This document shows positions 24,964 through 58,648 of a stretch of DNA of 64,000 nucleotides, one piece after another. Positions within the stretch are counted from its first letter, which is position 1; every line of letters begins with the position of its first letter. The stretch is from Macrostomum lignano (taxonomy: Eukaryota). Below the pieces are notes generated by a model, which worked only from the letters and a program-made list of their open reading frames with translations, made no database searches and was not told the DNA's origin. The stretch covers positions 1-64,000 of the forward strand of contig NIVC01001184.1 in the NCBI GenBank assembly GCA_002269645.1, given 5' to 3'. A program made the position numbers and the translations under genes.

Positions 24964-29743
<4,780 letters not shown>

Positions 29744-35963: not shown

Positions 35964-38900
35964 GGCGACGAAACGGCCACCCCCCACGGAGGGGTCTGCT
36001 TTCTTGTTAAGGAAGGTGTGGATTTCGCTGAGTACCGTCTGCCGCATATAGACGTGACCCGCACTGCTGCTGAAGGCTCGGCCATCTCGCTCCACGATAA
36101 ACGATTACCTCGACCAATTCACATCATCAACCTCTACCTCCCGCCGGTTCGAACCGCCGACGGGCGCCCTGACGGCTTTGACCCGGACTGGCTCCCGACC
36201 GGCCCGGACGTGTTCATCCTCGGAGACATAAACGCACACCACGGCATGTGGGAGGATAACTGCGACTCCGAAGACCAGCGAGGCTCCGCTTTCGAAGACT
36301 GGGCCACCACCAATGATTACGTGGCCCTCAACGACGGCGGCCCGACCAGAGTCAACGCCAGAGGCTCTACCAGCAGCCCCGACGTCTCCTTCGTCCCTGC
36401 CAGCTGGCAGGACAAGCTAGATTGGAACACCGGCAAACATATCGGATCTGACCACCTGCCCATCATTATTGACGTCATAAACCTAAACCCGCTCCCTGTG
36501 AAAAACGACAGGAAAAAGAGGCACACTCGCTTGGCTTATCACAAAGCAGACTGGGACAAATTCCGCCTTATCATCAGCGAGCGCCTTAAAAACTGGACCG
36601 CTAGACCACCAAAGACTGCCACTGGAGCTGCCAGCAAGCTCACCGACGCGATCACGGAGGCGGCCCGCAAAGCGATACCGCAGGGATCCCGCCGCGCCCC
36701 AATTGCTTGGTGGTGCCCAGAAGCTGAAGCAGCGTGCGCAGCCGACGCCAGGCTCTTGAAGACCTCCGAGCCAACCCCAACGACGACCAACTCGCCCAGG
36801 CGTTCCAGGAGGCGGCAGCGCACGCCACCGCCACCATCCGCAACGCCAAGGAAGCCCTGTGGCGCGACTTCATCAGCGACAACTCCAGCGAGCTCAAGTC
36901 GACTGACCTGTGGCGCATCATCCGCGTCCTCGACGGCCGCACCGCGGCCGCCCGCCCATCAGGGGCGATCCAAAACCCACAAGGCCGCTTCGCCACCTCC
37001 AACCGCCAGAAAGCCGATCTTTTCTGTCAAGAGTACGCCAACGTCGCCAAAATCCCGAAAGACAAATCGGCCGACAAAGACATCCGAAACGAATCCAGAA
37101 GAGCTGTGCGGGACATTTGCAGCTGTCAAAACCACCGGACGGGCCTGTGCGCCGACTTCCCGATGGAAGCTCTGACCAGAGCCATCAGAGGTATCCCCAG
37201 CAGATCGGCACCGGGCATCGACGGCGTTTCGAACCTAATGCTCAAAAATCTGCCAACCCAAGGCCTGGAGCTGATGCTGCTTGCCATCAACATCTCCTGG
37301 CGTACCGCTGAAGTCCCGGCTGCGTGGCGTCTGGGCGACATTCGACCGATCCCCAAACCCGGAAAAGATCACAGCATCACGGCGAGTTTCCGCCCTATCT
37401 GCCTTCTCTCTTGTACTGCTAAAATCGCCGAGCGGCTCGTTAACGAACGCCTCGCCTTTCATCTGGAAGAGAATAAACTGCTAAATGCAGCCCAAGCTGG
37501 ATTCCGCCGGAACCGCTCCACTGAGGAGCAGATTACGGCGGTCACCCAATACATCTTCGACGGCTTCCAAGCTCAGAAACCAGCGAAGCGGACCGCCCTA
37601 CTCTTAGCTGACTTCTCCAGAGCGTACGAGCGCGTGTGGCGTAAAGCCCAAATCGCCAAGCTAAACAGAAAAGGGACGCCCACGTGTATGAACCGGTGGA
37701 TTAAAAACTTCATCAACGACCGCCGTGCCCTCGTCACCTGGGACGGGGTCCGCAGCCGCGTCCGAATCTTCACCGAGGGCCTACCGCAAGGATCCGTTCT
37801 CGCCCCGACGCTCTGGGACGTGTACATCGACGACCTGCTCGACGACGCCCCCGAAGACGTCCTGGCGGTCGGTTACGCCGACGACACCACCTTCGGCGCC
37901 CAAGGCCACAACCTCAAAGAGTGCGAGTCGAGACTGCAGAGAGCGGCCGATTGGCTTGTTACCTGGTCCCAAACCTGGAAGGTGGACCTCAACAAGTCCA
38001 AGTCGGTCGTTTCCTTCTTCTCCCTCGATCCCCGTGAGGTAAATGGCAAAGCGAGACCGAATATCAGGCTCGGCGACGTCCAGGCCCCGTTCGAACCTCA
38101 CCCAAGACTCCTGGGCGTGCACCTCGACTCCCAGCTCACGTTCCGGCACCATGCGTCGGTACAAAAACAAAACCTCCAAAAGAGGACCAACGCTCTCCGC
38201 TGCCTAGCCGGGCGTGACTGGGGCCAGGACCCTGGGCTCCTGTCGCAACTCTACAGAACCTACGCTGAGTCGGCTGCTCTTCACGGCGCGGCAGCCTGGT
38301 TAAACTTCGCGTCGGACGCCTGCAGACAACTGGTGGAATCTGCCCACAACGAGGCTGCCCGTGTCATCTCAGGATGCTGCAAATCTACGCCAACAGCCGC
38401 GCTCCTTATCGAAGCCGGACTCCAACCCCTGGCTCACAGTGCGGCGGCCGCGGCAGCGACGCTCCTGGACAAAACGCTCCGCCAACGCCAAGCCACCCCG
38501 CTCCGCAACATCGCCGACAGAGAAGTCACTCCTCGCATCCGCGCTCACGGCGGAAACGGCAACTTCCGCAGATGTTGGCGCAGGTGTGCCAGAGAGCTGA
38601 CCCACAGAGCCGGACTGGCTGAGCTCCAAATCGAAACCGACAACGAGCTGGTGCCTCCGTGGTCATCCTCGACCAGCTTTCACATCCAAGACGCCCTCAT
38701 AGTTAAGTGCTCACGCGACGACCCACCGCATGTTCGCAGGGCCGCGGCGCTGGAGACCCTAGCGTCGCTCCCCCCGCTGACCTGGAACTCTGGACGGACG
38801 GGTCGGCAGCAGGGGGTACCACCAACGGCGGAGCAGGAGCTGTCCTCTACACCCGCGGTTCGTCGACGCGCTTTCTGAGAGCTCCGGCGGGGAGCCTGAC

Positions 38901-39657
38901 CTCGTCCTTCCGTGCGGAAGAATGCGCGCTTAGGCTCGGCCTCCAAGCAGCTTTTGACGCACTGCCGTGGCCGGGAAACCGCGAGCTGCGCTGCGCGACC
39001 GACTCCCAGGCCCTGCTCCGCTGCCTCAAAGGCGGCCCAAGCCCGCGGCTCTCCCCTTGCTGCCGCGACATACTGCGCATCTTGGGACGCCTCCCGCCTG
39101 GCCATCACGTGACCCTGCAATGGATCCCGGGCCACTGCGACCTTCGTCGCAACGATCTCGCCGATGCCACTGCCTGCGCTGCTGCCACCCTTGATCAGAC
39201 CAACGCACCCTGGATCACCGCAGCGCACGCTCTGCCATTCTGGCGACGGCCCACAACGACTTCATCCGATCGTATGAGACAAACGAGCACTGCAGCACCC
39301 ACCGCACCTGCATCAACGGCCGACGACCCAAACAGCAAACCTCCATGAACCGTAAGGACAGAGTCCTGCTAGCCCAACTACGCTCTGGCCACTGCCCGAT
39401 ACTCCGACAGTATCGGCACCGCATCGGGCTGGAACCGGAGGCCACCTGCCCGGCCTGCGGGGAGGCCCCGGAGGACCTCAAACACCTGCTCCTGGAATGT
39501 CGCGCCACGACCGAGACCAGACGACAAATTCTGGGCGAGAACCCGACGCTGGCCATCCTCCACGACGACGGCCCGCGCGCACTGCACTTCCTCCAGGCGG
39601 TAGGGGCGCAAACCCGCCCCCCGGATATTAACCCGGCCGGGAATTAACAACAACAAC
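35964..39657 (+). mobile_element. 5'-truncated non-LTR retrotransposon (I-group-like: APE endonuclease, RT, RNase H, C-terminal CCHC)
   Basis: 12-bp TSD AGCCTGAAGAGT at 35952-35963 and 39658-39669; (AAC)4 tail. APE motifs HGGVCFLV, NLYLPP, GDINAHH, SSPDVSF, GSDHLPI; RT motifs APGIDG, FRPICLL, QAGFR, GLPQGSVLAP, YADD; RNase H motifs WTDGS, RAEE, TDSQ, WIPGH..NDLAD; knuckle CPACGEAPEDLKHLLLEC. Three -1 frameshifts in C runs and no internal stops in the rejoined frame. Confidence 0.95.
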
Positions 39658-44582: not shown

Positions 44583-45622
44583 TAGACAACGCTGTAGGGG
44601 ATTTGCCCATAGAGAAATTCGATAAGGTAAAATCCGCTCTAAACAAATCCGATCTTCTAAGCAAATCGAGTGTAAGGATTCTTTTACTTTAGTTGTTCAT
44701 GAGCAAGAAGTTCTTGAACTACTTCACCAATGATTAACGAGAGCGTGTATGACCGGTTTTTATAAAGACCTGCTTCAATAGTGCAGCCCGAAAGTCAGTC
44801 GGTATACACGAGTCTGCTCAGCCGGCAAGCACACGCACGCACTCAACACACACTGCATGTAGCGGTGGCCTCGTCAGTTTTCCTGTCTGCGAGCTCGAGC
44901 AAACTTCCTGCTTTCTCGAGCCAGTGTATAAACTCTACACAGACGCGCCAATACTTGAAAAATTATGTTTCTCAACTCTGCTCGCCGGGGAACAGAAGTT
45001 AACTTCAAAGAGATGCTGGTTGATTCCATGCTGGTGGTTAGCTTTATACGGAGTTTCTCGACAAACTGTAGCATTTTGCAAGCTACACAATTTTACCCTT
45101 GATTTTGAACAAGGAGAACTTCGAAACTGACAAACTCCTCTTTAATATTGACACTCTATGGTCGGGCACTCAAAATCTACAATCAATATTGACAGATCGA
45201 GCTTCATTTTTGACAACTCCGAATCAATATTGAACAGTTTACAATCGATTTTGACTAAGACATTTTTTGAAATGGATTTTGAAAATTTTTACCAAGTTTT
45301 CTCTCTTGAGGGGGGTACTTGCTATTTGGGAGAGGGGGTACTGGCTGCATGTATCTACGAGTACATGTGGGAATCTTTCTATCCAGGGAAAAATGAAAAA
45401 TGAAGCAGACTTTTTGGGTACACAAACCATAGAGTGTCAGTTTTGAAGCAACTCTGTCAAAATAGAATCGGACTTTGCAGCCCAACCAGTCAGGCTATTT
45501 TAGTCTGTGTGTCTAAAGGATGGAGAAAAATAAATTTTATCAATACTTGTAGATCCAAAAAGCAAAGTCAGAATAAGCTGATTTTGCACAGCTCACTTCA
45601 GCCCCGTTCAGGCTTTCATTGG

Positions 45623-45801
45623 AGTAGTAGGAAAGTGGTACCCTCTACCGCCATCGCACGGGATTGGCCGGGGCACCCGGCCAATGAGGGGAGAGGGCGC
45701 CCCGAAGACGCCCACCCCGACGCCAAACCCACCCCGACCCCCAAACCCACCCCGACCCCAAACCCACCACCGCCACGCACCCAATCCCGACCCCAAACCC
45801 A
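45623..45801 (+). repeat. Maverick left TIR, followed by subterminal 39-bp repeats to ~46110
   Basis: Reverse complement of the right end; C-rich sub-repeats CCCCGACCCCAAACCCA. Confidence 0.95.
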
Positions 45802-46673
45802 CGCACCCAATCCCGACCCCAAACCAGGCCCCCTCCTGTCCTACACCCCTCCTGTCCTGCACCCCGTGAATCCCATACCAAGACCCCCTCCTGTCCTGCA
45901 CCCCGTGCATCCCATACCAAGACCCCCTCCTGTCCTGCACCCCGTGCATCCCATACCAAGACCCCCTCCTGTCCTGCACCCCATGCATCCCATACCAAGA
46001 CCCCCTCCTGTCCTACACCCCTCCTGTCCTGCACCCCGTGCATCCCATACCAAGACCCCCTCCTGTCCTGCACCCCATGCATCCCATACCAAGGCCCCCT
46101 CCTATCCTACGCCTTGCCCCATTCCATGTAGCAAGGTCTTTCTATCCTGTACCCTAACCAAAACCAATTCCCCCCTCCTAATTCCTAAACCCAAGTCTTA
46201 TTACCTGTCTCACTTACCGCCTTTAAAGCTAGCCAAGGCAAAACCCTCATTCCATGCTTTGGTTGTACTGTATCTTGCTGTGGCGGGTACAGCGTGAGGT
46301 CGTTAGACCTAGAACGCTACTTCTTGGCGGCCAGAGGGCCGCAAGAAGGTCCCGCCACCTCCTGTTACGTTGATGGCTGAGACTTTGTTAAGGCCCGAGT
46401 TCCTGCGAAAGGGCTGCTGTGTGGGGGTTGGATTTGGGGTTCGGATTAGTTATTGCTATGGAACAGGAGCTGGTTTCTAAATGGCTGAGTGGTCCCCGGA
46501 AGGGCTCCTGATTTGCCGAGAGTTCCTGCGAGAGGGCTGTTGTGTGGGGTTGGATTCGGGGTTCGGATTGGTTATTGCTATGGAGCGGGAGCTGGTGTTA
46601 CTTACCAACTCCAGTCATATATAATCTCGCGCACAGCCGGAAGGAAAGCTCACAGTTTTTGACAGTGAACAAA

Positions 46674-47369
46674 ATGGAGTTCAAGACATTATCGAACAGA
46701 TTTCGAATCGGCGTCAGGTCGCACTCGAAGTGCATCAGCTTCAGAAAGTGGTACAAATTTGCCGAAGAGTATCGACCAGGTCTGCCTGGCATGGAGCTCA
46801 CCGTCCACCAGTTTTGCCACTTGGGCAGCCTGAAGGAACGACTGAAAGAGTTTGCAAGAAAGTGTATCGACGAGCAATGCCTTCTGGGCGGCAACAGGCA
46901 AGTGGTTTTGCAAAATGGCGTAATCACACTCTGGCGCCTTCCAACTGTACTCGGACCGCCGGTGCACCTAAGGCATGCCTTACCGCTTCCTACTACACTT
47001 TGGCGCGAAGTCTGGGCTCAAAAGCAATGGGTCCTAGACAAAATTGACAAGCGAGAGCCTCCGGTCGAGCCGCCGATCGGCGATCCATGGTGGATGGGAT
47101 ACCACCCTACGGAATCTGAAGAGTGTTCAGCATGGGCAGCAAGGCTTACACTCGACCAACTGATGCAAGTACCTGACAGGCAGTCGGCAGATTGGGACGA
47201 CCACTGGGGGGCCTTCCAAGCAGTTCAGGCTGAATTTAGAAAGAGATTTACATTCGAAACTCTGGAAGAGCCACCAACAGCTGAGAAGAACCAACAGCCT
47301 TCATTCCACCAGCCACCAATGAAGCGACGCGCAATGCATGAAGCGACAACTGGTCATTTCGTCAATTAA
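46674..47369 (+). CDS. Maverick accessory protein with N-terminal PC4/Sub1-like (ssDNA-binding coactivator) domain
   Basis: ATG in AAAATGG context, TATATAA at 46618-46624, AATAAA at 47603. ISFRKWY..EEYRPGLPGMELTVHQFCHL aligns by eye to the PC4 core IDIREYW..EMKPGRKGISLNPEQWSQL. The C-terminal ~160 aa are unassigned. Confidence 0.6.
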   Translation: MEFKTLSNRFRIGVRSHSKCISFRKWYKFAEEYRPGLPGMELTVHQFCHLGSLKERLKEFARKCIDEQCLLGGNRQVVLQNGVITLWRLPTVLGPPVHLRHALPLPTTLWREVWAQKQWVLDKIDKREPPVEPPIGDPWWMGYHPTESEECSAWAARLTLDQLMQVPDRQSADWDDHWGAFQAVQAEFRKRFTFETLEEPPTAEKNQQPSFHQPPMKRRAMHEATTGHFVN

Positions 47370-47788
47370 CTTTTTTTTAATATAGTTTTGAACCATAGTA
47401 CTGATCATGCACTGTTGTATATATTGCTTTGTCAATACTGGCCATAATATTGCCCCATCATGCTTTGATTCCTGGCGATAATACTGTTTTGTAAATACAC
47501 GCGACGGGCCTTAATACTGCCCTTCCATTCTTCATAAACTTTTTTTGTGCTAATACGAGCTTTTAACATGTAATTTTATGCTTTGCAATCCATGGACCTG
47601 CCAATAAAATAAACAAAAAAAACGTTTCATTTTCGTAAGCATTGTTGCACAAACACAGTCGCATTCGCGTTTATTTTTTCTTATATTTTGTACACAAAAA
47701 ATACAGAAGTAAAGTTACAGCAAAAATATTATTATTAATACTCGGTGCATAGGCAGATCTCACTACTACTGTTATGCCGTAGAGGAGC

Positions 47789-48388
47789 TCAGTCAGAGTC
47801 CAGCAAAGTAGGTTCGGATGCTTGATCTGGTAGCAAAATGCGGGAGAGGGCATCAGCTGCAGTCTGAGCCTCAACCACGCTGCGAGCACCAGCTATTATA
47901 CAGCGATATGAATGAAACAAAATCAACTTTACAGAGGCAGTAAACTCGAGCACAAGTCCGTTAAACATTTCCGGCTCATAGGTGCCCCGATGCGGCCATT
48001 TAGACTTGAGTTCCCCCAACCGGAGTGGATGCGGACCCGCGGGAAAGGCCGTCACAGAGGTAATAGTCTTGATGCGAATCTGGGGCAGACTGGTCAATCG
48101 CAAGAAGTCCGCACACAGCTTCACAATCTTCTCCGTCTCTGCGAGAGCTTCCTCCAGGCTTTTGGCTCCACAGACAGACACTTGTCCGGTCGGATACACC
48201 AGCGCGGTTACTCGATGCTGCCCGCTCTTCATCACCACTGCCAGTGTTCGAGGATGAACCAGGCGATGGCGGATTGTGTGATACTGAGGCAGATGAAGAG
48301 TCAGGAAATTCGCTAGTTGTGGCAGACCCACCCGGGTCGCCAGGTCGGCTCCTGTCACGATGTTTGTCACGCGAATTGTTGCGACCAT
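47789..48388 (-). CDS. Maverick-encoded divergent TATA-box-binding protein (TBP)-like protein, 199 aa
   Basis: Two-repeat TBP core. Repeat 1: VTNIVTGADL..LANF..TALVYPTGQVSVCGAKSLEEA. Repeat 2: YEPEMFNGLV..LILFHSYRCIIAGARSVVEA. Upstream TATAAAA at 48435-48441; minus-strand AATAAA at 47670-47675. Confidence 0.85.
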   Translation of the reverse strand: MVATIRVTNIVTGADLATRVGLPQLANFLTLHLPQYHTIRHRLVHPRTLAVVMKSGQHRVTALVYPTGQVSVCGAKSLEEALAETEKIVKLCADFLRLTSLPQIRIKTITSVTAFPAGPHPLRLGELKSKWPHRGTYEPEMFNGLVLEFTASVKLILFHSYRCIIAGARSVVEAQTAADALSRILLPDQASEPTLLDSD

Positions 48389-48390
48389 CT

Positions 48391-48880
48391 TTAGACAATC
48401 GAGAGAAACGCCAGTGCCTGCTGCAGATCGCTACTTTTATAGACCCGTAGCCGCGAGGCCGCAGCCAATCAGCGTACAGCGCCACTTTGGCCAGGGCGCA
48501 GGGCAGCACGTACTTTGAGGCACTCGGAAAGGCTAGGTGTGCGAGGTCGTAAACAGGCTGCAGCAGCAGACGCGACAGGAACTGGCACTTGACATCCCCC
48601 TTGCTAAATATCGGGCCTTGCAAGTGAGAGATATCGCTCCAGAGACAAGAGTAGGGTCGGAACCCACTCCTGTCCCAGTCTAGACGTGCCGCTTATTGGT
48701 GAGCCAGTAGCAGGTTCGTCGCTGTCCTCTATCAAAGAGCTCAAAGCTGTGCGGCGGCTGGTAGCAATAGTAATGAGCCGTCGTTTGACCGCATGCAAAC
48801 TCAACCCATGCAATTTCCTTAATCACAAAGTCCTCTGTTTTGTAGAGGTGCGGAAATCCTTCAAAATCAATGACAATCAT
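48391..48880 (-). CDS. DEDD/DnaQ-like (Maelstrom-like) 3'-5' exonuclease-fold protein, frameshifted in this sequence
   Basis: MIVIDFEGF..FVIKEIAW..YQPPHSF..WLTNKRH, a -1 slip at ~48685, then GLDWD..PY..IFSKGDVKCQFL..VYDL..CALAK. The 3' end is inferred: a second slip near 48445 gives a stop at 48391; otherwise the ORF runs to 48000. Confidence 0.6.
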
Positions 48881-49473
48881 CTTGGCCACTTGATCCACTT
48901 GCCGTATCCTTTCTGAGACTGAGTCTTCTTATAGCCTTGCAGTCGAGGTTTTTTAGGACTGGACTTTTCTTCCCGAGGCTTTTCCAGCAATTTTGTAGTG
49001 TTCAGACCAACTGCAGACAGAGGCACGTGGTTTTCTTGAAGACACGTAACAAACTCATTAATCCCATTCGGTGGCTGAAGGTACTTAGAGTACGTATCTT
49101 TAACTATGAAATGCAGCAGGTCCACGATATTTGAGTTGTACAACGGTTTACCATTGACAGAAACTTCATACGTATCATCTATGCTAATCGACTTGCACTT
49201 TACGGTTATGAAGCTAATCAATGCCTGCAGACGATGATGCCATTTCTGATTCACCGTCAGATATAAAACCTCCTTCCACTGCGGTTCTTTGTGAATTACT
49301 GGAGGCTGTTCTTGGGTCGCACTTGCCTGCAGCTGCTGCACGCAACGCTCGTCCCTAATCTTGCGCAACTGTTTTTCCGCCTCTAGCTCGGGTTCACAGA
49401 CTGTCTCCATGCCCCTCTGATTCACAAGTGCCTCATACTGCAACCGGGGTACCAGTATCATTTCCTTGTACAT
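48877..49473 (-). CDS. Conserved Maverick protein of unknown function (PZ/PW class; exact label uncertain)
   Basis: MILVP start and VNGKPLYNSNIVDLL..PPNGINEF..LQENHVP motif resemble the conserved Maverick ORF found next to the ATPase. Confidence 0.55.
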   Translation of the reverse strand: MYKEMILVPRLQYEALVNQRGMETVCEPELEAEKQLRKIRDERCVQQLQASATQEQPPVIHKEPQWKEVLYLTVNQKWHHRLQALISFITVKCKSISIDDTYEVSVNGKPLYNSNIVDLLHFIVKDTYSKYLQPPNGINEFVTCLQENHVPLSAVGLNTTKLLEKPREEKSSPKKPRLQGYKKTQSQKGYGKWIKWPR

Positions 49474-49765
49474 GTCTTTTTATATAGGTGAGAATCAGAG
49501 GAAGACAACGAAGGATATGCGGGTGTGAGAGATTACGCCGAGCCTCTTTCACACTTTTGCTTTGTGCAACAAGCCGGAGAGTATTTCGATATCGCCTGAG
49601 TCTCCGCTTCAAGCTATCTTCACAGCCAACTTTTCCTGCTAGTAAGTTGATAATACACTCGACCAAAAAGCAAATGGTGCTTTTATTTGCATAGGTAAGT
49701 ATGCAGCGACGCAAGGATATAGTGCCCTCACAAAAGACAGTTATTAGTGCAATGTGTTTATCCAT
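49433..49765 (-). CDS. Conserved small basic Maverick protein (PM/PW class; exact label uncertain)
   Basis: RRCILTYANKSTICFLVECIINLLAGKV..KRRLRRYRNTLR resembles the Maverick small ORF pattern IL..A..L.EC..N.L.G.V..LR. Confidence 0.55.
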   Translation of the reverse strand: MDKHIALITVFCEGTISLRRCILTYANKSTICFLVECIINLLAGKVGCEDSLKRRLRRYRNTLRLVAQSKSVKEARRNLSHPHILRCLPLILTYIKRHVQGNDTGTPVAV

Positions 49766-49795
49766 GTTTAACTCAGTGCAGAGACTGAGCCATTC

Positions 49796-50454
49796 TTATA
49801 GATAAACTCGCTGCGGGGCCTCATCGGGGAGAAAATTGGCTCTCAGGCGCAGTTCATGGCGTGAAGCAGGGTGAAAATCAAGCAGCAGATAGCGCTGATC
49901 TCCATCTCGCACCAATCGATCCATCAGTTCTACTAGCAGAGTGCGCCGTTTGGGAAAGCATTGCTGACTTAAAGCTTGGACCGCAGAGGCGTCTCTGGGG
50001 TTGTTGAACAACACCATGTAGGTGCAATTTATGCTAATTGTGCGCCACTCTCTGCCTTTGAAAAATAGATTTTGCGTGATGAGAATGACAAAGCAGGGCT
50101 TGTGGTGGGCCTCACGGGTGAACAGATGTCGTAGCTCTCGACTTGCAGCTGCTTCATCCAGTAAATCGTCAATCACAATCAGGTCATGGGGCTGCAGATC
50201 CAAATTCGATAATCCTTCACATACTTGCACTCCTAGCCGCCGCAGAGTCGCGTGGAGTTCCGGCTGCGGGCATCCGTGATACCAAATCATCCGCTTGGGA
50301 GGTTGGTCGAACAAAGCAGTCGTTGGGACAGCAACCGCAAACAGAATGTTGATTTTCCCGCTCGAGAAGGGCCCGAAACCATCATGCAGCCTCCCATCCG
50401 CAGTCTGGAATCAAACACCTTGCAACTGATTTTTGAGTCTGAGTATGATTGCAT
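49796..50454 (-). CDS. A32/FtsK-HerA-like DNA packaging ATPase (one -1 slip at ~50314)
   Basis: Walker A GPSRAGKS, Walker B LIVIDD, HHKPCFVILITQNLF, RTISINCTYMVLFNNPRD; ~219 aa when rejoined. Confidence 0.92.
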
Positions 50455-50884
50455 CGTTTTGAGCCACAGCTGCCGGGTGCAAAACCTTGATGAACAAGGC
50501 ATTATATGACATTCTCTTATGCAGTCGATGGATCAAGTAAAAAATGCAATACCAGCCGCAAAGAGTTGACGAACTGGGCTGAACAGGGACCGTATTCCAT
50601 TGTAGCACCATCCGCGTCGGTTTAGTTTTCTTTAACCAGCTCTTCATATTTTTACTCAAGCCTCCCAAAGAGTTGAAAATTTCACAATGCACTTTACTGG
50701 TTACTACTCCAGCAATCCAGTGACCGCACTCATCATTCCATGGCTCATACAAAATGAAGCAGCAGGGTCGGCAGGTTGAATCGAAAAATGGTGTCACTGT
50801 TCCAACTGTAAAATTTCCGCAATAGGCATCCCGCACAGATGTGGGGCAGCGAGAAATGAACGCTTCCAACTCTTCGGAATTCAT
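50411..50884 (-). CDS. Adenain-like cysteine maturation protease
   Basis: GHW (catalytic His), FNSLG, VQPSSSTLCGWYC (oxyanion Gln and catalytic Cys). Confidence 0.9.
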   Translation of the reverse strand: MNSEELEAFISRCPTSVRDAYCGNFTVGTVTPFFDSTCRPCCFILYEPWNDECGHWIAGVVTSKVHCEIFNSLGGLSKNMKSWLKKTKPTRMVLQWNTVPVQPSSSTLCGWYCIFYLIHRLHKRMSYNALFIKVLHPAAVAQNDAIILRLKNQLQGV

Positions 50885-52150
50885 GCTCTGCGATAATCCA
50901 GCAGCACATCCCTCTCTTTAGTGATTTCCATGCATGAATCATACACGCACAAGCAGATGAGTGTGACTGGCTGTGCGAGAGCGTTGGAAAAGCGAATATC
51001 CAGTCGTAGTTGACCCTGCCTATGACCAAACCAGCTGCCTACTTCATCGCCACTTGGACTAAGGTCAAACGCAAGCAGATAGGCACTATTTCGAAATTCA
51101 TCAAAGCTTATGCAATATTTTCCACTGAGACTGCGGGCAAACTGCAAAAATTCGGATGAGGCTGCTGCTGTGGTTCTATGGGCTGCCCAGTAATTGGCTC
51201 TCCATTGACAAACAGGCTTAAACTATTCAACCAAATGCTTGGAACCAAAACGGGTTGTGGTGCAGAGATCCATTGAAAGCAGTCTGGCTGACCATTCCAA
51301 GGAGCACAAATTTTGGCAGCTGACCATGCGTGATTGAATCGAGACTCTTGTTTCTTGTCCCAACAGAAAATGTGAATGTCTGAAGCTCTCTTCTATCAAA
51401 GTGGTAGAGAGCATTACGCTGTGAGAGCCCCTGTTCATGTGCGAGAGCCACTGTTGGGTTTACTCGGAGACGCCTCAAAAGCAGAATAGCATTGTCGACT
51501 TCAACACGGTATTGAACTCCATTATTGGGTACCATCAACGAAAAAGCGCTGCAGTGCCGGGTCAATTTGACCTGCAGGCTGATTTGGTTTAGCAGATACT
51601 GCCGGATTGAGAAAATGTCTGAAAACAACGGGCCGGCATATTGCACAACAGCAGAAGCCTCATGCAATCTCGCACGATTTGTGAATCCATGATTTTGCTC
51701 CCCAATGGTGTCACTCTCTCCAGCGGTGTCTGGATAATAACCTGCGGCCGCCAGTTCTTGAAGCTGGTTGGCATTGCTGCTGGTCAGCACTTGAAGCATT
51801 GCTCGATATGGGTAGAGCTGGTCCCCACCACTCACAACCCGCTGGTTGAGTTTTACAGTGACATCACGAAACAGGCTGGCAAGCGGGAGATTCGATAGTC
51901 CGACATGGGCATCATCTTCATTAGTCAGCTCTGCATTGTTTATCACACGAGTTATCCGGCAAGTGACTTGCAGCACTGTGGCGTGCAGATCGGTGTAGTC
52001 CTCAGAGGAGGCGTGGCAGTCGAATTCAATCGGTGCATCAGGAGTCGTGAGACTGCCGATGGGATGAAAGTCCGTGAAGTGAGACCTATCCACTCCAATT
52101 TCATGCGTCATTGGCTCAAACAGATTGAGCCGTGGATTTGTCCGATACAT
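50881..52150 (-). CDS. Major capsid protein (double jelly-roll, PY), two -1 slips at ~51229 and ~51174
   Basis: LNLFEP..FHPIGSL..PIEF..YTDLHATVLQVTCRI; LFRDVTVKLNQ; YPYRAML; AFNGSLHHNPFWF; C-terminal AFDLSP..GQLRLDIRFSNAL..EITKERDVLLD; ~423 aa when rejoined. Confidence 0.9.
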
Positions 52151-52419
52151 TATGAGAGTGAATCGAGCACTCGGTTGACTGTTTTTAACGGTATCTTGCG
52201 CTTTTTTGTGGGCACTGGCTTGCTCTTCTTTGGTTTGATTTTTGGCGTCTTCTTATGTTTTCTTTTTTTCTGCGATGGAGGTGGTATGCGGGAAAGGAGA
52301 ACTGCATTTTCATGAGTCTCAGGGGGCAGTCGAGATAGCAGCGATGTGGGATATCCGTGCCCATGAGGAAGTTTGAAGCAACTGCCTCGATAAAACTCGG
52401 TCACTTGTCGAATGTCCAT
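52150..52419 (-). CDS. Small Lys-rich putative core/DNA-condensing protein
   Basis: 89 aa with a highly basic C-terminus (QKKRKHKKTPKIKPKKSKPVPTKKRK) and an N-terminal FYRG..HGHG motif; lies between the capsid genes, overlapping both. Confidence 0.5.
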   Translation of the reverse strand: MDIRQVTEFYRGSCFKLPHGHGYPTSLLSRLPPETHENAVLLSRIPPPSQKKRKHKKTPKIKPKKSKPVPTKKRKIPLKTVNRVLDSLS

Positions 52420-53183
52420 GACTCACGCAGCTCAAAAGTCAAGACTGTGGGTACAAAGAGTAATCGGATAGATTCGATACAGTTGATCGGTCGTAGCCGT
52501 ATTTGCATGTGTGTTAAGCGGTGGTTTGCTGCTATTGGGAAGAATAGCTTATTCTTATAGATGAGTTCCGACCGGTGATCCTGCAAAAGACCACCAATAT
52601 TCAAAGTCTGCAGTGCTGGAGTAAACTGATTTCCAATACAGCGCGGGCTAATCTGATCGCACTCAACAAGCAGCAAATCCGTATTCCAGGCCGGGTTCAT
52701 GCCAGGTCGTTCAAAGCATCCTGCCTGCTCGCTATAGGTTGTCTGCGCAGCACCAAAGATTTTCCCCATCTGGCTGTTTTCTGGAAACATAAATCTCTCA
52801 CAGATCCCAGCCATTTGATAGTATACATAATGGCTAACTGAATCAAGGGTAAATTTAATTAGATGCACATTTATAGGTGTTTCGCCAATTCCAGACTCAT
52901 CAAAATCTTTTACAATCAGTAAAGCATTTACTGCATCAATCAGCTCATTCAAGTCATTGTAGCGCCCAGCTGGAATTTCAGCACATTGCATTGAACCCTC
53001 AAGCTGATAATATAGCGACAATGGATGAGGGATCGTGTAGATGCAGTTGATAAAACTGATTCCAAGCAGACCCAACTCATAGTCCAAAGCAGAATCCAGC
53101 AGCACAGGATGCAGCAGCTCAGCAGTAAAGTTGGCCGGGTCATCATCGGGGCCGGACATTACCTGAAATCTTTGCCTTTTCAT
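52401..53183 (-). CDS. Minor capsid protein (penton, single jelly-roll with insertion, PX)
   Basis: PANFTAELLHPVLLD..YELGLLGISFINCIYTI N-terminus and LLLVECDQI..FFPI..HMQIRL..LTFEL C-terminus; position typical of the Maverick penton. Confidence 0.8.
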   Translation of the reverse strand: MKRQRFQVMSGPDDDPANFTAELLHPVLLDSALDYELGLLGISFINCIYTIPHPLSLYYQLEGSMQCAEIPAGRYNDLNELIDAVNALLIVKDFDESGIGETPINVHLIKFTLDSVSHYVYYQMAGICERFMFPENSQMGKIFGAAQTTYSEQAGCFERPGMNPAWNTDLLLVECDQISPRCIGNQFTPALQTLNIGGLLQDHRSELIYKNKLFFPIAANHRLTHMQIRLRPINCIESIRLLFVPTVLTFELRESWTFDK

Positions 53184-54387
53184 ATTTTTCTTAAGTCTTT
53201 TTCGTCAATCCAACTGGGTTTTTCTGAATCGCGCCACTGAACCAAATACCGAATCTTTCCACTCTTCAGCTTCTTAATGTTGAGAACCTTGTCGATGATC
53301 CACAGCTTCTTGTTTCCTGTCACTTGCTGCATTTCCGGCTCGTAAAACTTGCCTTCCAACTCTTCACCTCGGGCATCGATCAGAGTGTACATGTATGGAT
53401 AATGCTTGGGGTGGAGGGACTTGACTTCAAATACTTCCTCACTCCATCCCCTTGTGTATCCCTTGGTGAATGGGTTGGCCAGATTGCGAAGAGAGATTCG
53501 CACCATCATTCCTGCCTTGAACTTTGGTCTGGAGACCTTTTCACGAGTCTCAGGAAGCTTCCCATCGTAAAGCCGGTGCCAAATTTCCATCTCGTTTGAC
53601 TTGTCGACATCAACTGGTCGGCTTTGAATACTCCGATGAATACTCTGGTTGTATGCCTTTGCTAAGGGTTGAAGCACATCGGTCCAGGTTAATGTTGACT
53701 TGTGACGGAAGTACCGCCACATTCGGGATTTCAGTGTGCGGTTCCATCTCTCAATGACTGCGCATTTCTGGTCACTACTTGATGTGAATGCATGAATTTT
53801 GTGGTTTACGCAGAGGCTCGGAACTGGGTGTTACAAAACTCTTTTCCACGGTCGGTCCGAACTGCTCGTGGGCATCGAGGGTGAGCTCGATTTAGGATCG
53901 CTTCGAATCCGGCTGCAACCTCCTCGGCTGTCTTGCGGCGCACCGGCTGAGCCCAGGCAAACTTGCTGAGCACATCAATGCAGCATAAAATATATCGTAC
54001 GCCGCCATTGTACTTGGCAAACGGTAGCATTTCAACCAGGTCCAGTTCCCACTGGTCATCCATGCCCCGCACCACAATCGGTGCTCGACGAAAGTTTTTG
54101 CGTTTATCTCTATGCAGTGTGTAGACATCTTGGTCTTGGAGCCACGTTTTTACCTTTAATTGTAAAAACTGGAAATTGCTAGCAACTAAAAACCTAAGCT
54201 GGAATTTTCTAAAAAATCATTGGTTTAGAAGTATATCGTATATACATACCTGCCCTACACTAAACTTGGGTCCGTGCTGTTTGTGCAACTCTCGTTTTAA
54301 TGCCTGATAGCCGCCATAGCTGCCCGGTCTACTGCAGTCAAAATAAATACCTGGCAGAAGGTTTGAAATTGCCTTTTTCTTTTTCAT
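53180..54387 (-). CDS. Retroviral-like c-integrase (DDE) with C-terminal chromodomain; 2 exons, one -1 slip at ~53815
   Basis: Exon 1 54387-54250 (MKKKK..IYFDCSRPGSYGG..VGQ); intron 54249-54154; exon 2 VKTWLQDQDVYTLH..QWELDLVEM..TDRGKEF..AVIERWNRTLK; chromodomain WIIDKVL..RYLVQW..PSWIDEKDL; ~370 aa when rejoined. Confidence 0.92.
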
Positions 54388-54499
54388 TTTACCAAATTTC
54401 TAGTACCTATCATTTTCTTATGCCAAACACCTGCTTGAAAAAAAAAAACTACCCACCCCCACCAGTTTCTGCGGATTTAGCGTTTCTAGCCTCTGTTGT

Positions 54500-54815
54500 G
54501 CGCGAAAAAGCATGCATGTTTGCACAAAAATACATACATTTCAATGGGAATTTTTACCCGAATGTGTGCACAAAAAACCTCGACACTTTGCATACTTTTT
54601 AACACTGTGCACGAAAACTTGCATACTTGTGCACAAAATACATGTATTTCAATAGGGATTTGTACCCGAACCTGTGCATGAAAATTGACGCATTTTGTCG
54701 AAAAATTCACGCCGTATTGCATACTTTTAATCACTGGACGAAAACTTGCATACTTGTGGATAAAATACATACATTTCAATGGGGATTTTACCCCAGAGCT
54801 GTGCACAAAAAATGA
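54500..54815. repeat. Imperfect ~110-125-bp triplicated AT-rich repeat between the pPolB remnant and the integrase
   Basis: AAAATACATRYATTTCAATRGG..TTTTACCC..TGTGCA recurs at ~54527, ~54636 and ~54762. Confidence 0.7.
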
Positions 54816-54979
54816 CTAATTATAGCAAAAATATTTTTGTGAAAGAGCATTTTTCTCTATTTCTGCGTATTAGATATCATAGAGTAAAGCTTGTATTTAT
54901 TATTATTCAAAATATAGTATGTTCGTATTAAATTTACATGCATATAGTTGTTTTAAATCAGATATTTACAAAGAAAAAA

Positions 54980-55770
54980 AAATTTGTGGGAAAAAGAGCT
55001 TGCTAGTGTCCAGACAGATCGCACTGGCCGATATACACTAGCCTGTCGAGCACAACATTCGTCTTGAGAATGTGCACTAGAGCTAAATCCCCGTTGAAAA
55101 TCATCTGATCGCGGAACGTCGGCTGGCCACAGGCTTCCCTGCTGAATAAACCAGCACGTAGTCCACTTGCTTGCGAACATACTCGATGGTCTACAGGGAG
55201 TTGTTTAGCAGCTTGTTGCAGTCTTTCTTGAACTCATTCTTGGCCTTTTGCACGACGCTCTATGCGGTAGATAATAACTTGCGGTTGACACGTCAACACA
55301 CCGAGTGGTCCTGATTACCCAGCCACTGCCATTGCGTAGTTACTTCTCTATCCGGTTGAGGATAGTCTGCATGTCGTCAGAGAAGTAGTACTCCTCCTCA
55401 CTCTGGAGAAGAGAGTGGACCTTGGCAGCAAACCAGGCAGTGTTCTCGGCGGCGCAGCTACCATTAATGATGCGCTGCATCAGGACCCCGAGGCGCAGCT
55501 GAACTTTGATGGCGGTTCCTGGCTCACGTTGATGCTGGGTGATCAAGTCAATGAAAGCTTGACGAGTGTTTTCCAAAACATTCATCGGGTCGCCGCATGC
55601 ACTGGCCCGGTAAAGTTGGGACCTGCCATTAAACGCCTCCTTGATCAGTTGAAAATGAATCGCTGGGGAGTCATCTGACTCAAAAGTGCTGGTATCGCAG
55701 GACATACCGCATAGTGCTCCTCAATGCCCCCGATTACTGATGACTCGCAAAAGTCGCAAGTTATTTGCAT
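54980..55770 (-). pseudogene. Protein-primed family B DNA polymerase (pPolB) remnant with a large internal deletion
   Basis: N-terminal CDFC..H..C finger and KVQLRLGVLM..WFAAK..IEK-stop-LRNGSGWVI (the Maverick pPolB GSGW motif). This is joined within ~60 bp to AKNEFKKDCNKLLNNSL-stop-TIEYVRKQV (motif B, KLxNNS) and PTFRDQMIF..VLDRLVYIG..LDTSKL. In-frame stops and frameshifts; no exonuclease or YxDTD core. Confidence 0.85.
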
Positions 55771-56448
55771 TTTCGTTGTATTTTTAATTTAATCTAAAAT
55801 AAATAAAAAATCTATGGGGCCGAGGTGCTTTATTTATAAAGGGTACTGGAGCCCTTCTCCCGCAGGGTCCAAACCAAATCGTTCATCAGGGACCTCTCGA
55901 CCAATAGAATCCATTCTCCACATTTTACTCGGAAATCACTTCAAATGCTTGCTCGACCAATAGAATCCCTTCCCCTCTCTACTCGGAAATTCCAAGCAAT
56001 CAGACCCTCTACCCGTTAAGATCACATTGAAACTCTGTCTTGCGTATCACCACATGCGGTAGAGGATACTCAACTATGGACACTCATTCACATCTCAAAA
56101 CTCACCCTTGAACACTCACTTAACTCACCCTTGGACACTCACCCAGACACTCAGCTGCCCAACCCCTCATCTGGCCTGCTCGACCGGCTTGCCCGACCGG
56201 CTTGCCCGACCGGCTTGCCCGACCCCAACCTGGGCTTGCCCGACCCCCTTCTCCGGCCTCCGGTATGGGATGGTGTGCTGGACAGGAAGGGGCCTTGGTA
56301 TGGGATGGGGTGCAGGACAGGAGGGGGCCCGGTTTGGGGTCGGAGGTAGGTGCGGCGGTGGTGGGTTTGGGGTCGGGTGGGCGTCTTTGGGGGCCCGGTT
56401 TGGGGTCGGGGTGGGTGCGTGGCGGTGGTGGGTTTGGCCGGGGTCGGG

Positions 56449-56628
56449 GTGGGTTTGGGGGTCGGGATTGGGTGCGTGGCGGTGGTGGGTTTGGGTCGGG
56501 GTGGGTTTGGGGGTCGGGGTGGGTTTGGCGTCGGGGTGGGCGTCTTCGGGGCGCCCTCTCCCCTCATTGGCCGGGTGCCCCGGCCAATCCCGTGCGATGG
56601 CGGTAGAGGGTACCACTTTCCTACTACT
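56449..56628 (-). repeat. Maverick right TIR, with related sub-repeats continuing to ~56250
   Basis: Reverse complement of the left end. Confidence 0.95.
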
Positions 56629-56835
56629 CATTGGATTACTTTGTTACCGAATTCTCCCAGGAGAAGTTGACTAAACGTGCATTGTCAAAATTGAACCAGA
56701 GTTTGTCAAAATTGAAGCTTGATCTGTCAATATTGATTGTAGATTTTGAGTGCCCGACCATGGAGTGTCAATATTGAAGAGGAGTTTGTCAGTTTCGAAG
56801 TTCTCCTTGTTCAAAATCGAGAGTAAAATGGTGTA

Positions 56836-58648
56836 GTAGAGACTACGAGCAAGCAATTTAATTCAAGTTAGCAAAAACACATGCATTTTGAGCCTCACTG
56901 CTAGTTGTCTCACGATTTCGCGCGGGCAAGACGGCCTAAGGAATCGTCAGTGTGTTGCCCGCAGATTTTGTCTATGGCATAAGCGTAAACGTTTGTAACG
57001 CAAGATTTTTTTGTATTTTTTGCGATTAAACTTGAAAAGTACAAAGTGAAACTTATGAACATGGCATTAAAAGTACAACCGATATGTCACGTATACATAG
57101 CGTGTGCAATGGCTGCATGTGACCAGAGGAGTTCCTTTAATACTCCACGTTAGTCTATAGTCCACTAAATGAAGAAACTAAGTCAGACGCCATCCTTTTC
57201 CAGTACAGCGGTAGGCTTGAGGTCGTTTGGGTCGCATGATTGCCTCACGGCTGGGATAGCGTTCGGTCTTTGATTGATGTTGCTAGCCTCTGAAGTCTCA
57301 GTGACGACCATACGCTTTGATGAGGTGGCCTCAGTCTCCGACACAGTCTGTCCCCACGGCAGGATTTCCTTTCAAACTTACATACCAGAGGCGCAAATAG
57401 CTGTCGACATAACGCAGTGGCATGCGCTCAATGTCCTCAGGCAGTTTCTTCTCGCGGAGGAACTTCTTAAGTCGTTCAATGTGGTTCCGAGTAGTAGCCA
57501 ATGTCGAAGGCGACTTTGAGGATGCCTCGGTGTCCTTAATGTTTTGAAGTTCTTTCGCATCCAAGTCTCGTAGCGAACACTCCGGATCAATAGCGGAATT
57601 CAGGAATTCTTCGACCTCCTCGTGGTCCAGGACCGGCAGCCCAGTGAATTGATCTACCGTTGATTCTACATGCATGAACAGTCGAGATATAAAATGCAGC
57701 TCAGAATTAGCCAGGCCACTAATATCGCCTGTTGCTATCTTACTGAAATTGATCATGTTGCCGTCAGAATAAGCTATCAGTGCAGCTAATCTCAGCTCTA
57801 GTCCGATGCCTCCACGTCTCTCTTCACTGCAGCTGTATGAACAGGCTTTAGGGGCTTTGGACATAGACGAATTCTCAGGGCAACGGACACACAACGACAT
57901 TCCGTGCCCGCTGTTTTGGTCTATGGCCAATCGTGAAACAACATAGCAGCCCTCGGATTCGCTCATTCCTGCCCTCAAATCCATAGTCAGAACAATCAGT
58001 TGTCTATGGTAAAAAGTGTGTCAAACCGGCAGGCAATTTAATCCTAGGAGCACTTATTTAAGCACGATCTTGCTCGGACTTTCCATTTATTTCATGCATG
58101 CCTCCAACCAAACCAACCAGGAAGCTCCATATGAAAAAGTTACGACGTATAGAACAAAATTCAGCAAAAAAGTTCACTTAACGAAACCTGTGTATAAAGA
58201 AACACACGGCAGAAAAGTTTTTACATGTACGTTTAGACTTCAGTAGGTTACATAATCACCTCCCCAGCGCTGCAGCCTGTGCGAATTCTTGTCTGCGTGC
58301 TAAGTTGGCAATGCTTCTGTTGTTAGCGTCGATTATCAATCTATGCTTTTTGTCGTTAATCTTAGCATATTGCACAGATGGCGCTCCGGCATCTTCAGCA
58401 GCGATTCCGTGGATGTCTTAAAAATGGTGCTGGCTTTGGTCACTTTCGTCTGACATGTTAAAAAAACTGAGATTGGAACGGCATAGACAGCGCTGTTTAT
58501 GGATTTCAGTGCTTAAATGATTGCTCCAAGGATTAAATTGCCTGCCGGTTTGACACAATATTTACCATGGCATGGACAACTAGCATTGAGGCTCAAAATG
58601 CATGTTTTTTGGCTATCTTTGATTAAATTGCTTGCTCGTAGTCTCTAC
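56836..58648. mobile_element. Degenerate inverted-repeat-bounded element (~1.8 kb) with a nested inner IR pair
   Basis: ~74-bp arms at 56836-56909 and 58575-58648 (GTAGAGACTACGAGCAAGCAATTTAAT..GCATTTTGAGCCTCA..CTAGTTGTC); second IR pair at 58004-58065 and 58509-58570. Confidence 0.65.
57331..57984 (-). pseudogene. Possible Crypton-type tyrosine recombinase (DUF3504-associated) N-terminal remnant
   Basis: ELQNIKD..KSPSTLATTRNHIERLKKFLREK..DIERMPLRYVDSYLRLWYVSLK resembles the Crypton/ZMYM/KCTD1 core-binding region. The catalytic domain is absent, and TAT|GTAAGT may be a splice donor. Confidence 0.4.

Follow-up and report, generated by a model that had tools for sequence, protein, structure and literature searches.

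The 64,000-nt stretch of Macrostomum lignano DNA analysed here (contig NIVC01001184.1, positions 1 to 64,000; the window) contains a Maverick/Polinton element of 11.0 kb (45623-56628), both ends of which start with AGTAGT and which is flanked on either side by the 6-bp TSD CATTGG (Table 1). The Maverick/Polinton hallmark of a TIR starting with AG together with a 6-bp TSD was therefore found, and the insertion is young, the TIRs being 99% complementary over their outer 143 nt. A further inverted pair lies outside the Maverick TSDs (45083-45216 and 56703-56836; 134 nt, 95% complementary), which suggests that the Maverick inserted into an older inverted-repeat element. Elsewhere in the window we take, from the translations, 36246-39647 to be a non-LTR retrotransposon with frames for an endonuclease and a reverse transcriptase, 6794-10591 a long NACHT/WD40-like exon and 24964-29743 a kinesin-light-chain-like gene.

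Table 1. Features of the Maverick element in the window.
Feature	Position	Strand	Remarks
Left TIR	45623..45990	+	Starts AGTAGT; TSD CATTGG at 45617-45622
PC4/Sub1-like ORF, 231 aa	46674..47369	+	Homology weak; converges on TBP gene; TATATAAT near 46618
Second AATAAA	47603	+	3' of converging PC4-like gene
AATAAA poly(A)-type signal	47670..47675	-	3' of TBP-like gene
TBP-like gene	47789..48388	-	199 aa; clade 1, lineage A; Pfam, PDB, model, alignment
Exonuclease-like ORF	48391..48880	-	Interrupted near 48680; variant box TATAAGAA at 48926-48933; no Pfam match
Canonical TATA box TATAAAAG	48434..48441	-	53 nt 5' of TBP-like ATG, inside exonuclease-like frame
CCAAT box (GATTGG on coding strand)	48465..48470	+	5' of TATA box of TBP gene
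Conserved 198-aa ORF	48877..49473	-	Presumably PW/PZ-type, from position; TATAAAAA at 49477-49484
Basic 110-aa ORF	49433..49765	-	Variant box TATAAGAA at 49793-49800
Packaging ATPase-like gene	49796..50410	-	CATAAGAG at 50514-50521
Cysteine protease (PRO)	50411..50884	-	Lineage-B homologue matches adenovirus endoprotease PF00770, E 4e-5
Major capsid protein (MCP)-like gene	50881..52150	-	Interrupted near 51225; CATAAGAA at 52250-52257
Short Lys/Arg-rich (core-like) ORF	52150..52419	-	TATAAGAA at 52552-52559
Minor capsid protein (mCP)-like gene	52401..53183	-	CTTAAGAA at 53188-53195
rve integrase (INT), chromo-like C-terminus	53180..54150	-	PF00665, E 4e-10; interrupted near 53810
Protein-primed DNA polymerase B (pPolB) remnants	55015..55705	-	E 5.5e-6 to lineage-B pPolB; most of gene missing
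Right TIR	56262..56628	-	TSD CATTGG at 56629-56634

Several of the gene labels are presumptive: we assign the exonuclease-like ORF to its family from a DEDD-type motif, the MCP-like gene from its position and Maverick architecture and the mCP-like gene from Maverick gene order, the capsid-like genes having no Pfam match. P-loop matches of the ATPase-like gene were weak, and the lineage-C ORF placed like the basic 110-aa ORF matches Adeno_PX. No Rfam match was found within the element. The PC4/Sub1-like ORF (PF02229, E 0.015, below the cut-off; MoSub1 in the PDB, E 0.0085), in which the resemblance is to an N-terminal domain, adjoins TBP in lineage-A loci and was not detected in the loci of lineages B-E; judging by these matches its product could be a further cofactor of transcription or could bind single-strand DNA. 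The window element is defective, since most of pPolB is lost and interruptions break the frames of INT, MCP and the exonuclease-like ORF; the TBP frame is whole. A short pPolB remnant of the type at 55343-55705 also occurs at about 20 other loci, a multi-copy lineage-A subfamily, and shares only 46-48% identity with the pPolB frames that are long at other lineage-A loci (the long frames of related loci had no Pfam support as pPolB). This subfamily is probably a non-autonomous derivative that retains TBP.

Fold, copies and descent of the TBP-like gene

The original prediction, an intact 199-aa ORF with both TBP repeats inside a TSD-bounded Maverick, is borne out: the frame is open, the TIRs and TSDs were located and PF00352 (TBP) matched in two stretches (E 3.4e-18; 65.7 bits against a cut-off of 22.9). 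TBPs made up 35 of the 38 PDB sequence matches listed (E 4e-10 to 2e-6), and an AlphaFold2 model built from a 7-row alignment (pLDDT 83.6) had 1mp9 as its best Foldseek match (E 1.7e-12) and, in VIA, aligned to human TBP with Z 17.8 and an rmsd of 2.8 over 172 residues, the best non-TBP reaching Z 9.7. The ORF is thereby confirmed, at the level of a predicted structure, as a two-repeat TBP with a saddle fold superposable on solved TBPs. The protein consists of the core only, as had been noted, but a short N-terminus is not distinctive here, host TBP itself having about 38 residues before its core. Identity to the window protein was 26% over 182 residues for host TBP and 19% for host TRF2; the core is intronless in both host genes, each of which is present in three near-identical copies. 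The host TFIIB gene is split over exons.

In a six-frame genome search with the window protein, the best 150 of 197 candidates yielded 151 matches. Lineage A comprises copies close to the window protein (16 of the 150 listed rows cover residues 1-199 without a stop, at 91-100% identity), and most other listed rows belong to lineage B, at 35-40% identity to it; a public gene model of M. lignano (PAA54323.1) is identical to a lineage-B locus. Whether the gene always sits inside Mavericks had been put forward as a check, and among the matches listed a Maverick ATPase match lay within 7 kb of TBP at 27/36 lineage-A and 82/105 lineage-B loci. Conversely, 26/28 (A) and 90/104 (B) of the ATPase loci among the matches listed had a TBP match; in both counts second pieces of one locus were dropped and one short A-like fragment was tallied under B. 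All four lineage-B loci examined were syntenic Mavericks with TBP in the same gene order. The exonuclease-like ORF overlaps the TBP gene by about 110 codons in another frame in lineages A and B (L013, 1709-2590; L043, 1679-2530; L045, 6405-7250; L046, 1733-2569).

A second, more divergent TBP clade (clade 2; 80 matches) was found further out from distant ATPase loci, 7 of 12 of which have a clade-2 match within 9 kb. The clade-2 protein matches PF00352 at E 3e-4, below the cut-off; its first Atlas matches are TBPs, at 0.95, and its model aligns to yeast TBP with Z 14.8 and an rmsd of 3.5 (172 aligned). All five Maverick lineages examined (A-E) carry a TBP-like gene, in two clades. Lineages without TBP had been considered, with none of 12 ATPase loci near a clade-1 match and none found in three 9-kb stretches; this idea was rejected because a clade-2 TBP lay just outside. 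Lineages B, C and E have the TBP gene close to pPolB. At four loci, lineages C and E carry dUTPase-like, deoxynucleoside kinase (dNK; PF01712, E 3e-21), phospholipase A2-like (PF08398) and adenovirus pX-like (PF05829) genes, and at four different loci the TBP frame continues into the kinase frame. Clade-2 TBP genes have a polypyrimidine tract and YAG exactly at the fold start in 6/6 cases (L058, 2196-2240; L055, about 2770; L059-L062), most without a nearby ATG, and this YAG is likely, from its sequence context, to be a splice or trans-splice acceptor. Vertebrate Maverick genes are reported to be intronless in a passage of PMC8097293. Four public proteins contain pieces of Maverick TBP fused to other element or host-like sequence (e.g. 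an ABC transporter or an Ig-repeat protein); these fusions are probably gene-prediction artefacts, and one reason why the TBP gene is unannotated.

Purifying selection, for which a dN/dS below 1 had been put forward as a check, was found clearly in lineage B (0.18-0.35 in 6/6 pairs; Nei-Gojobori), where the 5' half of the gene overlaps another frame and dS in the 3' half is 1.15 or saturated, and less clearly in lineage A, where the window copy against 11 others gave 0.18-1.06 with few changes. Constraint on cyprinid Maverick core genes is stronger than on TBP here, with a dN/dS of about 0.001 given in the part of PMC8097293 that treats it. A tree built from 46 selected rows separates both clade 1 (100/98) and clade 2 (100/100) from host TBP; together with four unnamed proteins the two clades, on long branches, lie to the same side of an 83/83 branch, and they are about 20% identical to one another. 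The supposition that the gene is not a recent, near-identical host capture holds, and these data support an old, selected and element-bound gene.

A profile search of 1.8 billion representatives returned at the top M. lignano-type gene models and short unnamed proteins from ENA, Logan and JGI, five of which share 47-63% identity with lineage A or 51-71% with lineage B; ordinary TBPs rank next. No Maverick-TBP relative was confirmed at any locus in the viral contigs scanned, the five loci from a metagenome scan were all ordinary archaeal or giant-virus-like TBPs (21-38% identity) and included no Maverick, and a word search with the clade-2 protein gave no match. Close to the Maverick clades branch ten unnamed TBPs of 170-185 aa that have an FH motif, one of which (P0089) has 3/5 signature residues in common with the Maverick TBPs, and an Atlas cluster near clade 2 is mostly nematode. 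Short 'FH' TBPs were considered as Maverick genes, but the search gave unnamed proteins of 176-183 aa lacking genomic context and the label was withheld.

A remodelled DNA face and variant TATA boxes

Residues are numbered as in yeast TBP (host TBP number plus 23). All 13 aligned element proteins retain the TFIIB-stirrup acids, F190 and F207, have lost F99 and share F116Y, V122S/T, N159T/S and V161T/S. Within clade 1, 11/11 rows retain N69, L114, E186, E188, F190 and F207, are altered at F116Y, S117P, V122S/T, T124C, Q158K, N159T, V161T/S and V203K, and lack F99 and P191. Among 144 other TBPs these signature states were found 2 (Y116), 5 (P117), 2 (S/T122), 2 (S/T159), 12 (S/T161), 1 (C124) and 1 (K158) times. 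The clade-2 rows (6/6) carry Y116, P117, T122, T/S159, T161 and D186 with E188 (D-x-E); F190, P191 and F207 are retained, L114Q and L205N are found and N69 is absent.

In the window protein N69 corresponds to N9 and E186-P187-E188 to E138-P139-E140, an acidic C-terminal stirrup for TFIIB recognised in the primary structure, and V122S, T124C, V161T and P191N are present. The residues called initially are correct, F190 (F142) and F207 (F158) being retained, F116 being Y65, N159 T108 and SGK SYR. The position of F99 is occupied by L, T or P depending on the alignment (the register is ambiguous) and never by Phe, so that the four intercalating Phe and two Asn of canonical TBPs are not all present. 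The alteration had been described as asymmetric; the loss of Phe does fall in repeat 1, but repeat 2 is altered too (Q158K, V161T, P191N, V203K). Like cellular TBPs (yeast Spt15, human, archaeal), the element protein has a two-repeat saddle and clade 1 keeps N69, V71, L114, E186-P-E188, F190 and F207, whereas the window protein is reduced to the core, is only 26% identical to host TBP, has lost F99 and P191 and carries N159T, F116Y, V122S, T124C, Q158K and V203K. The N91 and E93 residues of the N-terminal stirrup, which have a role with TFIIA in TBP, are also replaced. By alignment, the predicted DNA face is remodelled yet fixed and the TFIIB stirrup retained, and the E186-P-E188 motif fits recruitment of Pol II.

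TATA variants with G at position 6 precede virion and packaging genes, YWTAAGAA occurring with clade 1 and TATAAGCA with clade 2; the motif was chosen after inspection, and every lineage scored for it (A-E) carries TBP. YWTAAGAA stands at corresponding upstream places in lineages A and B, and CTTAAG, ACTTAA and TAAGAA rank first when k-mers are counted over A and one B copy. As YWTAAGAA could arise from Lys codons, its expectation was computed with the protein sequence fixed: within 150 nt upstream of the next start it was observed 4, 5 and 5 times in A, B1 and B2 against 0.97, 0.68 and 0.59 expected (P 2e-3, 4e-6 and 4e-6), with none elsewhere in coding DNA, and control words showed no upstream enrichment in this test of A, B1 and B2. 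When starts were called mechanically, enrichment of WTAAG was seen for B1, B2, C and E (p 0.004-0.04) and not for A (3/15, p 0.29) or D (1/12, p 0.53). The clade-2 lineages C, D and E have TATAAG(C)A, mostly 43-60 nt upstream, and TATAAG falls on the coding and other strand 11 and 0 times in C, 8 and 2 in E and 5 and 1 in D. A baculovirus-type TAAG initiator was considered instead of a TATA box; the usual spacing of 42-60 nt suits a TATA box better, but with the variant only 12 nt before mCP in lineage A there may still be an initiator.

The distribution of the boxes follows gene class in part. In both C and E the variant box precedes mCP, pX and MCP and is absent before pPolB, TBP and ORF234/248 (and dNK in E), the TBP-dNK-pPolB cluster of these lineages being headed by the canonical box TATATAAG. 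Lineage-A copies with a located start have TATAAAAG before TBP in 24/26 and the CCAAT box in 25/26 cases. In lineages A, C and E the TBP gene thus lies behind a canonical rather than a variant box; lineage B departs from this, its TBP gene being behind CTTAAGAA at the place at which lineage A has TATAAAAG. Comparable places in lineage A are taken variously by TATAAAAG, TATAAAAA and TATAAGAA, no gene follows the TATAAGAA at 47678-47685, and the protease gene, like several other genes, is without a variant box in every lineage examined. In contigs of three presumed-RNA runs genes and spacer were covered alike, with no informative ends.

The clade-1 sites have C at base 1 in 10/15, T at base 2 in 11/15 and A at base 7 in 12/15 cases, and the clade-2 sites T1 in 13/14, A2 in 14/14 and C7 in 10/14. 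We take V122 to face base 6 and L114 base 7 of the TATA box. Loss of P191 goes with C at base 1 in clade 1 and its retention with T in clade 2; L114Q goes with C7 in clade 2 and L114 with A7 in clade 1. P191 is described as favouring T at base 1 in a passage of PMC12529657, and the loss of P191 appears to accompany the loss of T1 as that role predicts, in what is one contrast between two clades with homologous sites, for which Fisher p-values exaggerate the strength of the association.

Possible roles of the element TBP

The fold, the retention in several lineages, the selection, the residue pattern and the promoter-like motif together point to a specificity-shifted minimal TBP that is an old accessory gene of Mavericks. 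Our preferred reading, held with slightly more confidence than doubt, is that it would be an element-specific promoter factor which is made early, binds the G6 variant and drives late genes with host TFIIB and Pol II. Host TBP would start an early unit containing the TBP gene from a canonical TATA box (TATAAAAG with CCAAT here, TATATAAG in C and E), and the element TBP would then bind the minor groove of the G6 variants (YWTAAGAA in A and B, TATAAGCA in C, D and E), which lie upstream of the capsid, core and packaging genes and of some integrase genes, at 35-60 nt or sometimes 100-165 nt. Its retained acidic stirrup would bring in host TFIIB together with Pol II, for the most part free of control by TFIID/TFIIA, and the result would be a switch from early to late genes like that of herpesviruses, needing neither a viral polymerase nor a helper virus. 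The lineage-B TBP gene behind a variant box breaks this neat early/late split. Also against the proposal, F99 is lost, whereas KSHV ORF24 needs all four Phe. Host TBP could itself read the variant boxes, because there are crystal structures of wild-type TBP bound to TATA variants, namely G(-26), C(-25) and T(-30), according to the entry titles of PDB 1qn5, 1qn3 and 1qna.

This last point bears on an unlikely, though not negligible, alternative in which host TBP reads the boxes and the element TBP, with weak or no DNA binding, acts as a decoy or host modulator that diverts TFIIB or dampens host transcription, in a manner loosely resembling TRF2/TLF. Going by the same titles, single G6 or C7 variants can be bound by host-type TBP, F99 is lost in 11/11 clade-1 rows and N159 altered with E186 and E188 retained, and host TRF2 likewise lacks F99, F116 and F190; the Maverick protein, unlike animal TRF2/TLF, keeps F190, and it is separate from host TRF2 in the tree. 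A decoy, however, would have no use for one set of concave-face residues (Y116, S/T122, T/S159, T/S161, F190, F207) fixed across clades of about 20% identity, nor for motif classes that vary with the TBP clade. Rather less probable is a relaxed-specificity stand-in that binds TATA-like DNA broadly and gives TFIID-independent TBP activity to all element promoters (e.g. on episomal copies or in TBP-poor cells) with no temporal switch. It would account for the lineage-B TBP gene sharing the box of the structural genes and for the mixture of TATAAAAG, TATAAAAA and TATAAGAA in lineage A, but not for the division seen in C and E, where mCP, pX and MCP have the variant box and pPolB, TBP and ORF234/248 (with dNK in E) do not.

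We consider improbable a non-transcriptional use of the fold, in which the protein bends the termini for protein-primed replication or tethers the integrase to AT-rich or promoter DNA. TBP-like folds do occur in rolling-circle Rep proteins (4cwc, Z 7.4) and the gene is near pPolB in B, C and E; yet the TFIIB stirrup is retained, the variant box precedes genes in gene orientation at a promoter-like spacing, and TBP is intact in the pPolB-deleted window copy. Neutral cargo, a captured host TBP decaying within the element, is very improbable and largely refuted, since against some lineage-A pairs with dN/dS near 1 and some broken copies stand the 26% identity to host TBP, the clades at 100/98 and 100/100 away from it, the presence in five lineages, the lineage-B dN/dS of 0.18-0.35 and the relatives in unrelated metagenomic records.

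The element-specific promoter factor that we favour has a parallel in herpesviruses. Like the beta- and gammaherpesvirus vTBPs (KSHV ORF24, HCMV UL87 and EBV BcRF1), the Maverick protein, judged from its sequence, has a virus-encoded TBP fold, a TATA variant before putative late genes and presumably host Pol II. According to the parts of PMC12529657 that describe it, KSHV ORF24 has polar residues at L114, V122, T124, V161 and L205, needs all four Phe, is without the TFIIB acids (numbered E184 and E188 there), is large, with an N-terminal domain that binds Pol II, acts together with five other viral factors and has TATTWAA as its target. The V122, T124 and V161 sites are polar in Maverick TBP as well, as are the L114 and L205 sites in clade 2, whereas the Maverick protein has only about 190 aa, keeps the TFIIB acids, has lost F99 and has a candidate box that differs at position 6. 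The UL87 fold match reached only E 8e-5 and the class features of herpesvirus vTBPs were not found; by analogy the Maverick TBP may work like a herpesvirus vTBP without being one.

NCLDVs mostly encode their own RNA polymerase, and no such polymerase gene was seen in the Maverick loci examined; their TBP-like proteins share the viral TBP fold (Heterosigma akashiwo virus A0A1C9C511, E 7.8e-12) but at most 17% identity with the Maverick TBP. The late promoter (TCTA) of Mavirus/EMALE is read by a helper giant virus. These polinton-like elements likewise have a common upstream motif before virion genes, whereas the candidate reader in the Mavericks studied here is encoded by the element. We had known of no description of TBP in Mavericks, but a 'TBP' is labelled in figure legends on MELD/adintovirus-like elements (Starrett et al., 2021; PMC8502044, Fig. 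5; preprint 10.1101/697771, Figs 5 and 6). In both cases a linear dsDNA element of medium size that has an adintovirus-like PolB carries a TBP-like gene, but in that work TBP is a legend label only, in a section on non-animal datasets with the carrier element unspecified. That section contains no analysis of TBP residues, conservation or promoters and the journal supplement has no TBP match (Starrett et al., 2021). The earlier statement that no description exists is therefore correct only in part. The label was the sole mention of TBP found in the Maverick literature covered (full text, few subscription journals): the main texts of PMC11161782, PMC10748475, PMC11131425 and PMC8097293 and the supplements of PMC10748475 and PMC11131425 mention neither TBP nor TATA, the TBP passage of PMC10675990 concerns mirusvirus-like elements, and in PMC12220804 the term matched the reference list only. 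Viral TBP mimics are known, and a Maverick TBP with a remodelled DNA face and a variant box would be a new form of that theme.

In its fullest form the proposal is tentative, and we put it at somewhat under an even chance: animal Mavericks of this kind would have self-contained late transcription in which a stand-alone viral TBP of about 190 aa recruits host TFIIB and Pol II, its contact residues and the TATA variant of each lineage would evolve together (P191 with base 1, V122 with G6, L114 with base 7) to give a natural altered-specificity TBP set, and the gene would be a cryptic, widespread Polinton gene missed below Pfam cut-offs. The questions addressed are whether animal Mavericks are real viruses and how their capsid genes are timed without an RNA polymerase or a helper virus; a dedicated TBP with a matching promoter variant, if true, would answer part of the timing question and would be the simplest known viral TBP system, where herpesviruses need six factors. 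With two TBP clades and two different boxes side by side in the genome, the way in which TBP residues set TATA specificity could be studied as a natural experiment. As the clade-2 proteins lie at or below the Pfam cut-off, similar genes in other Mavericks may be overlooked.
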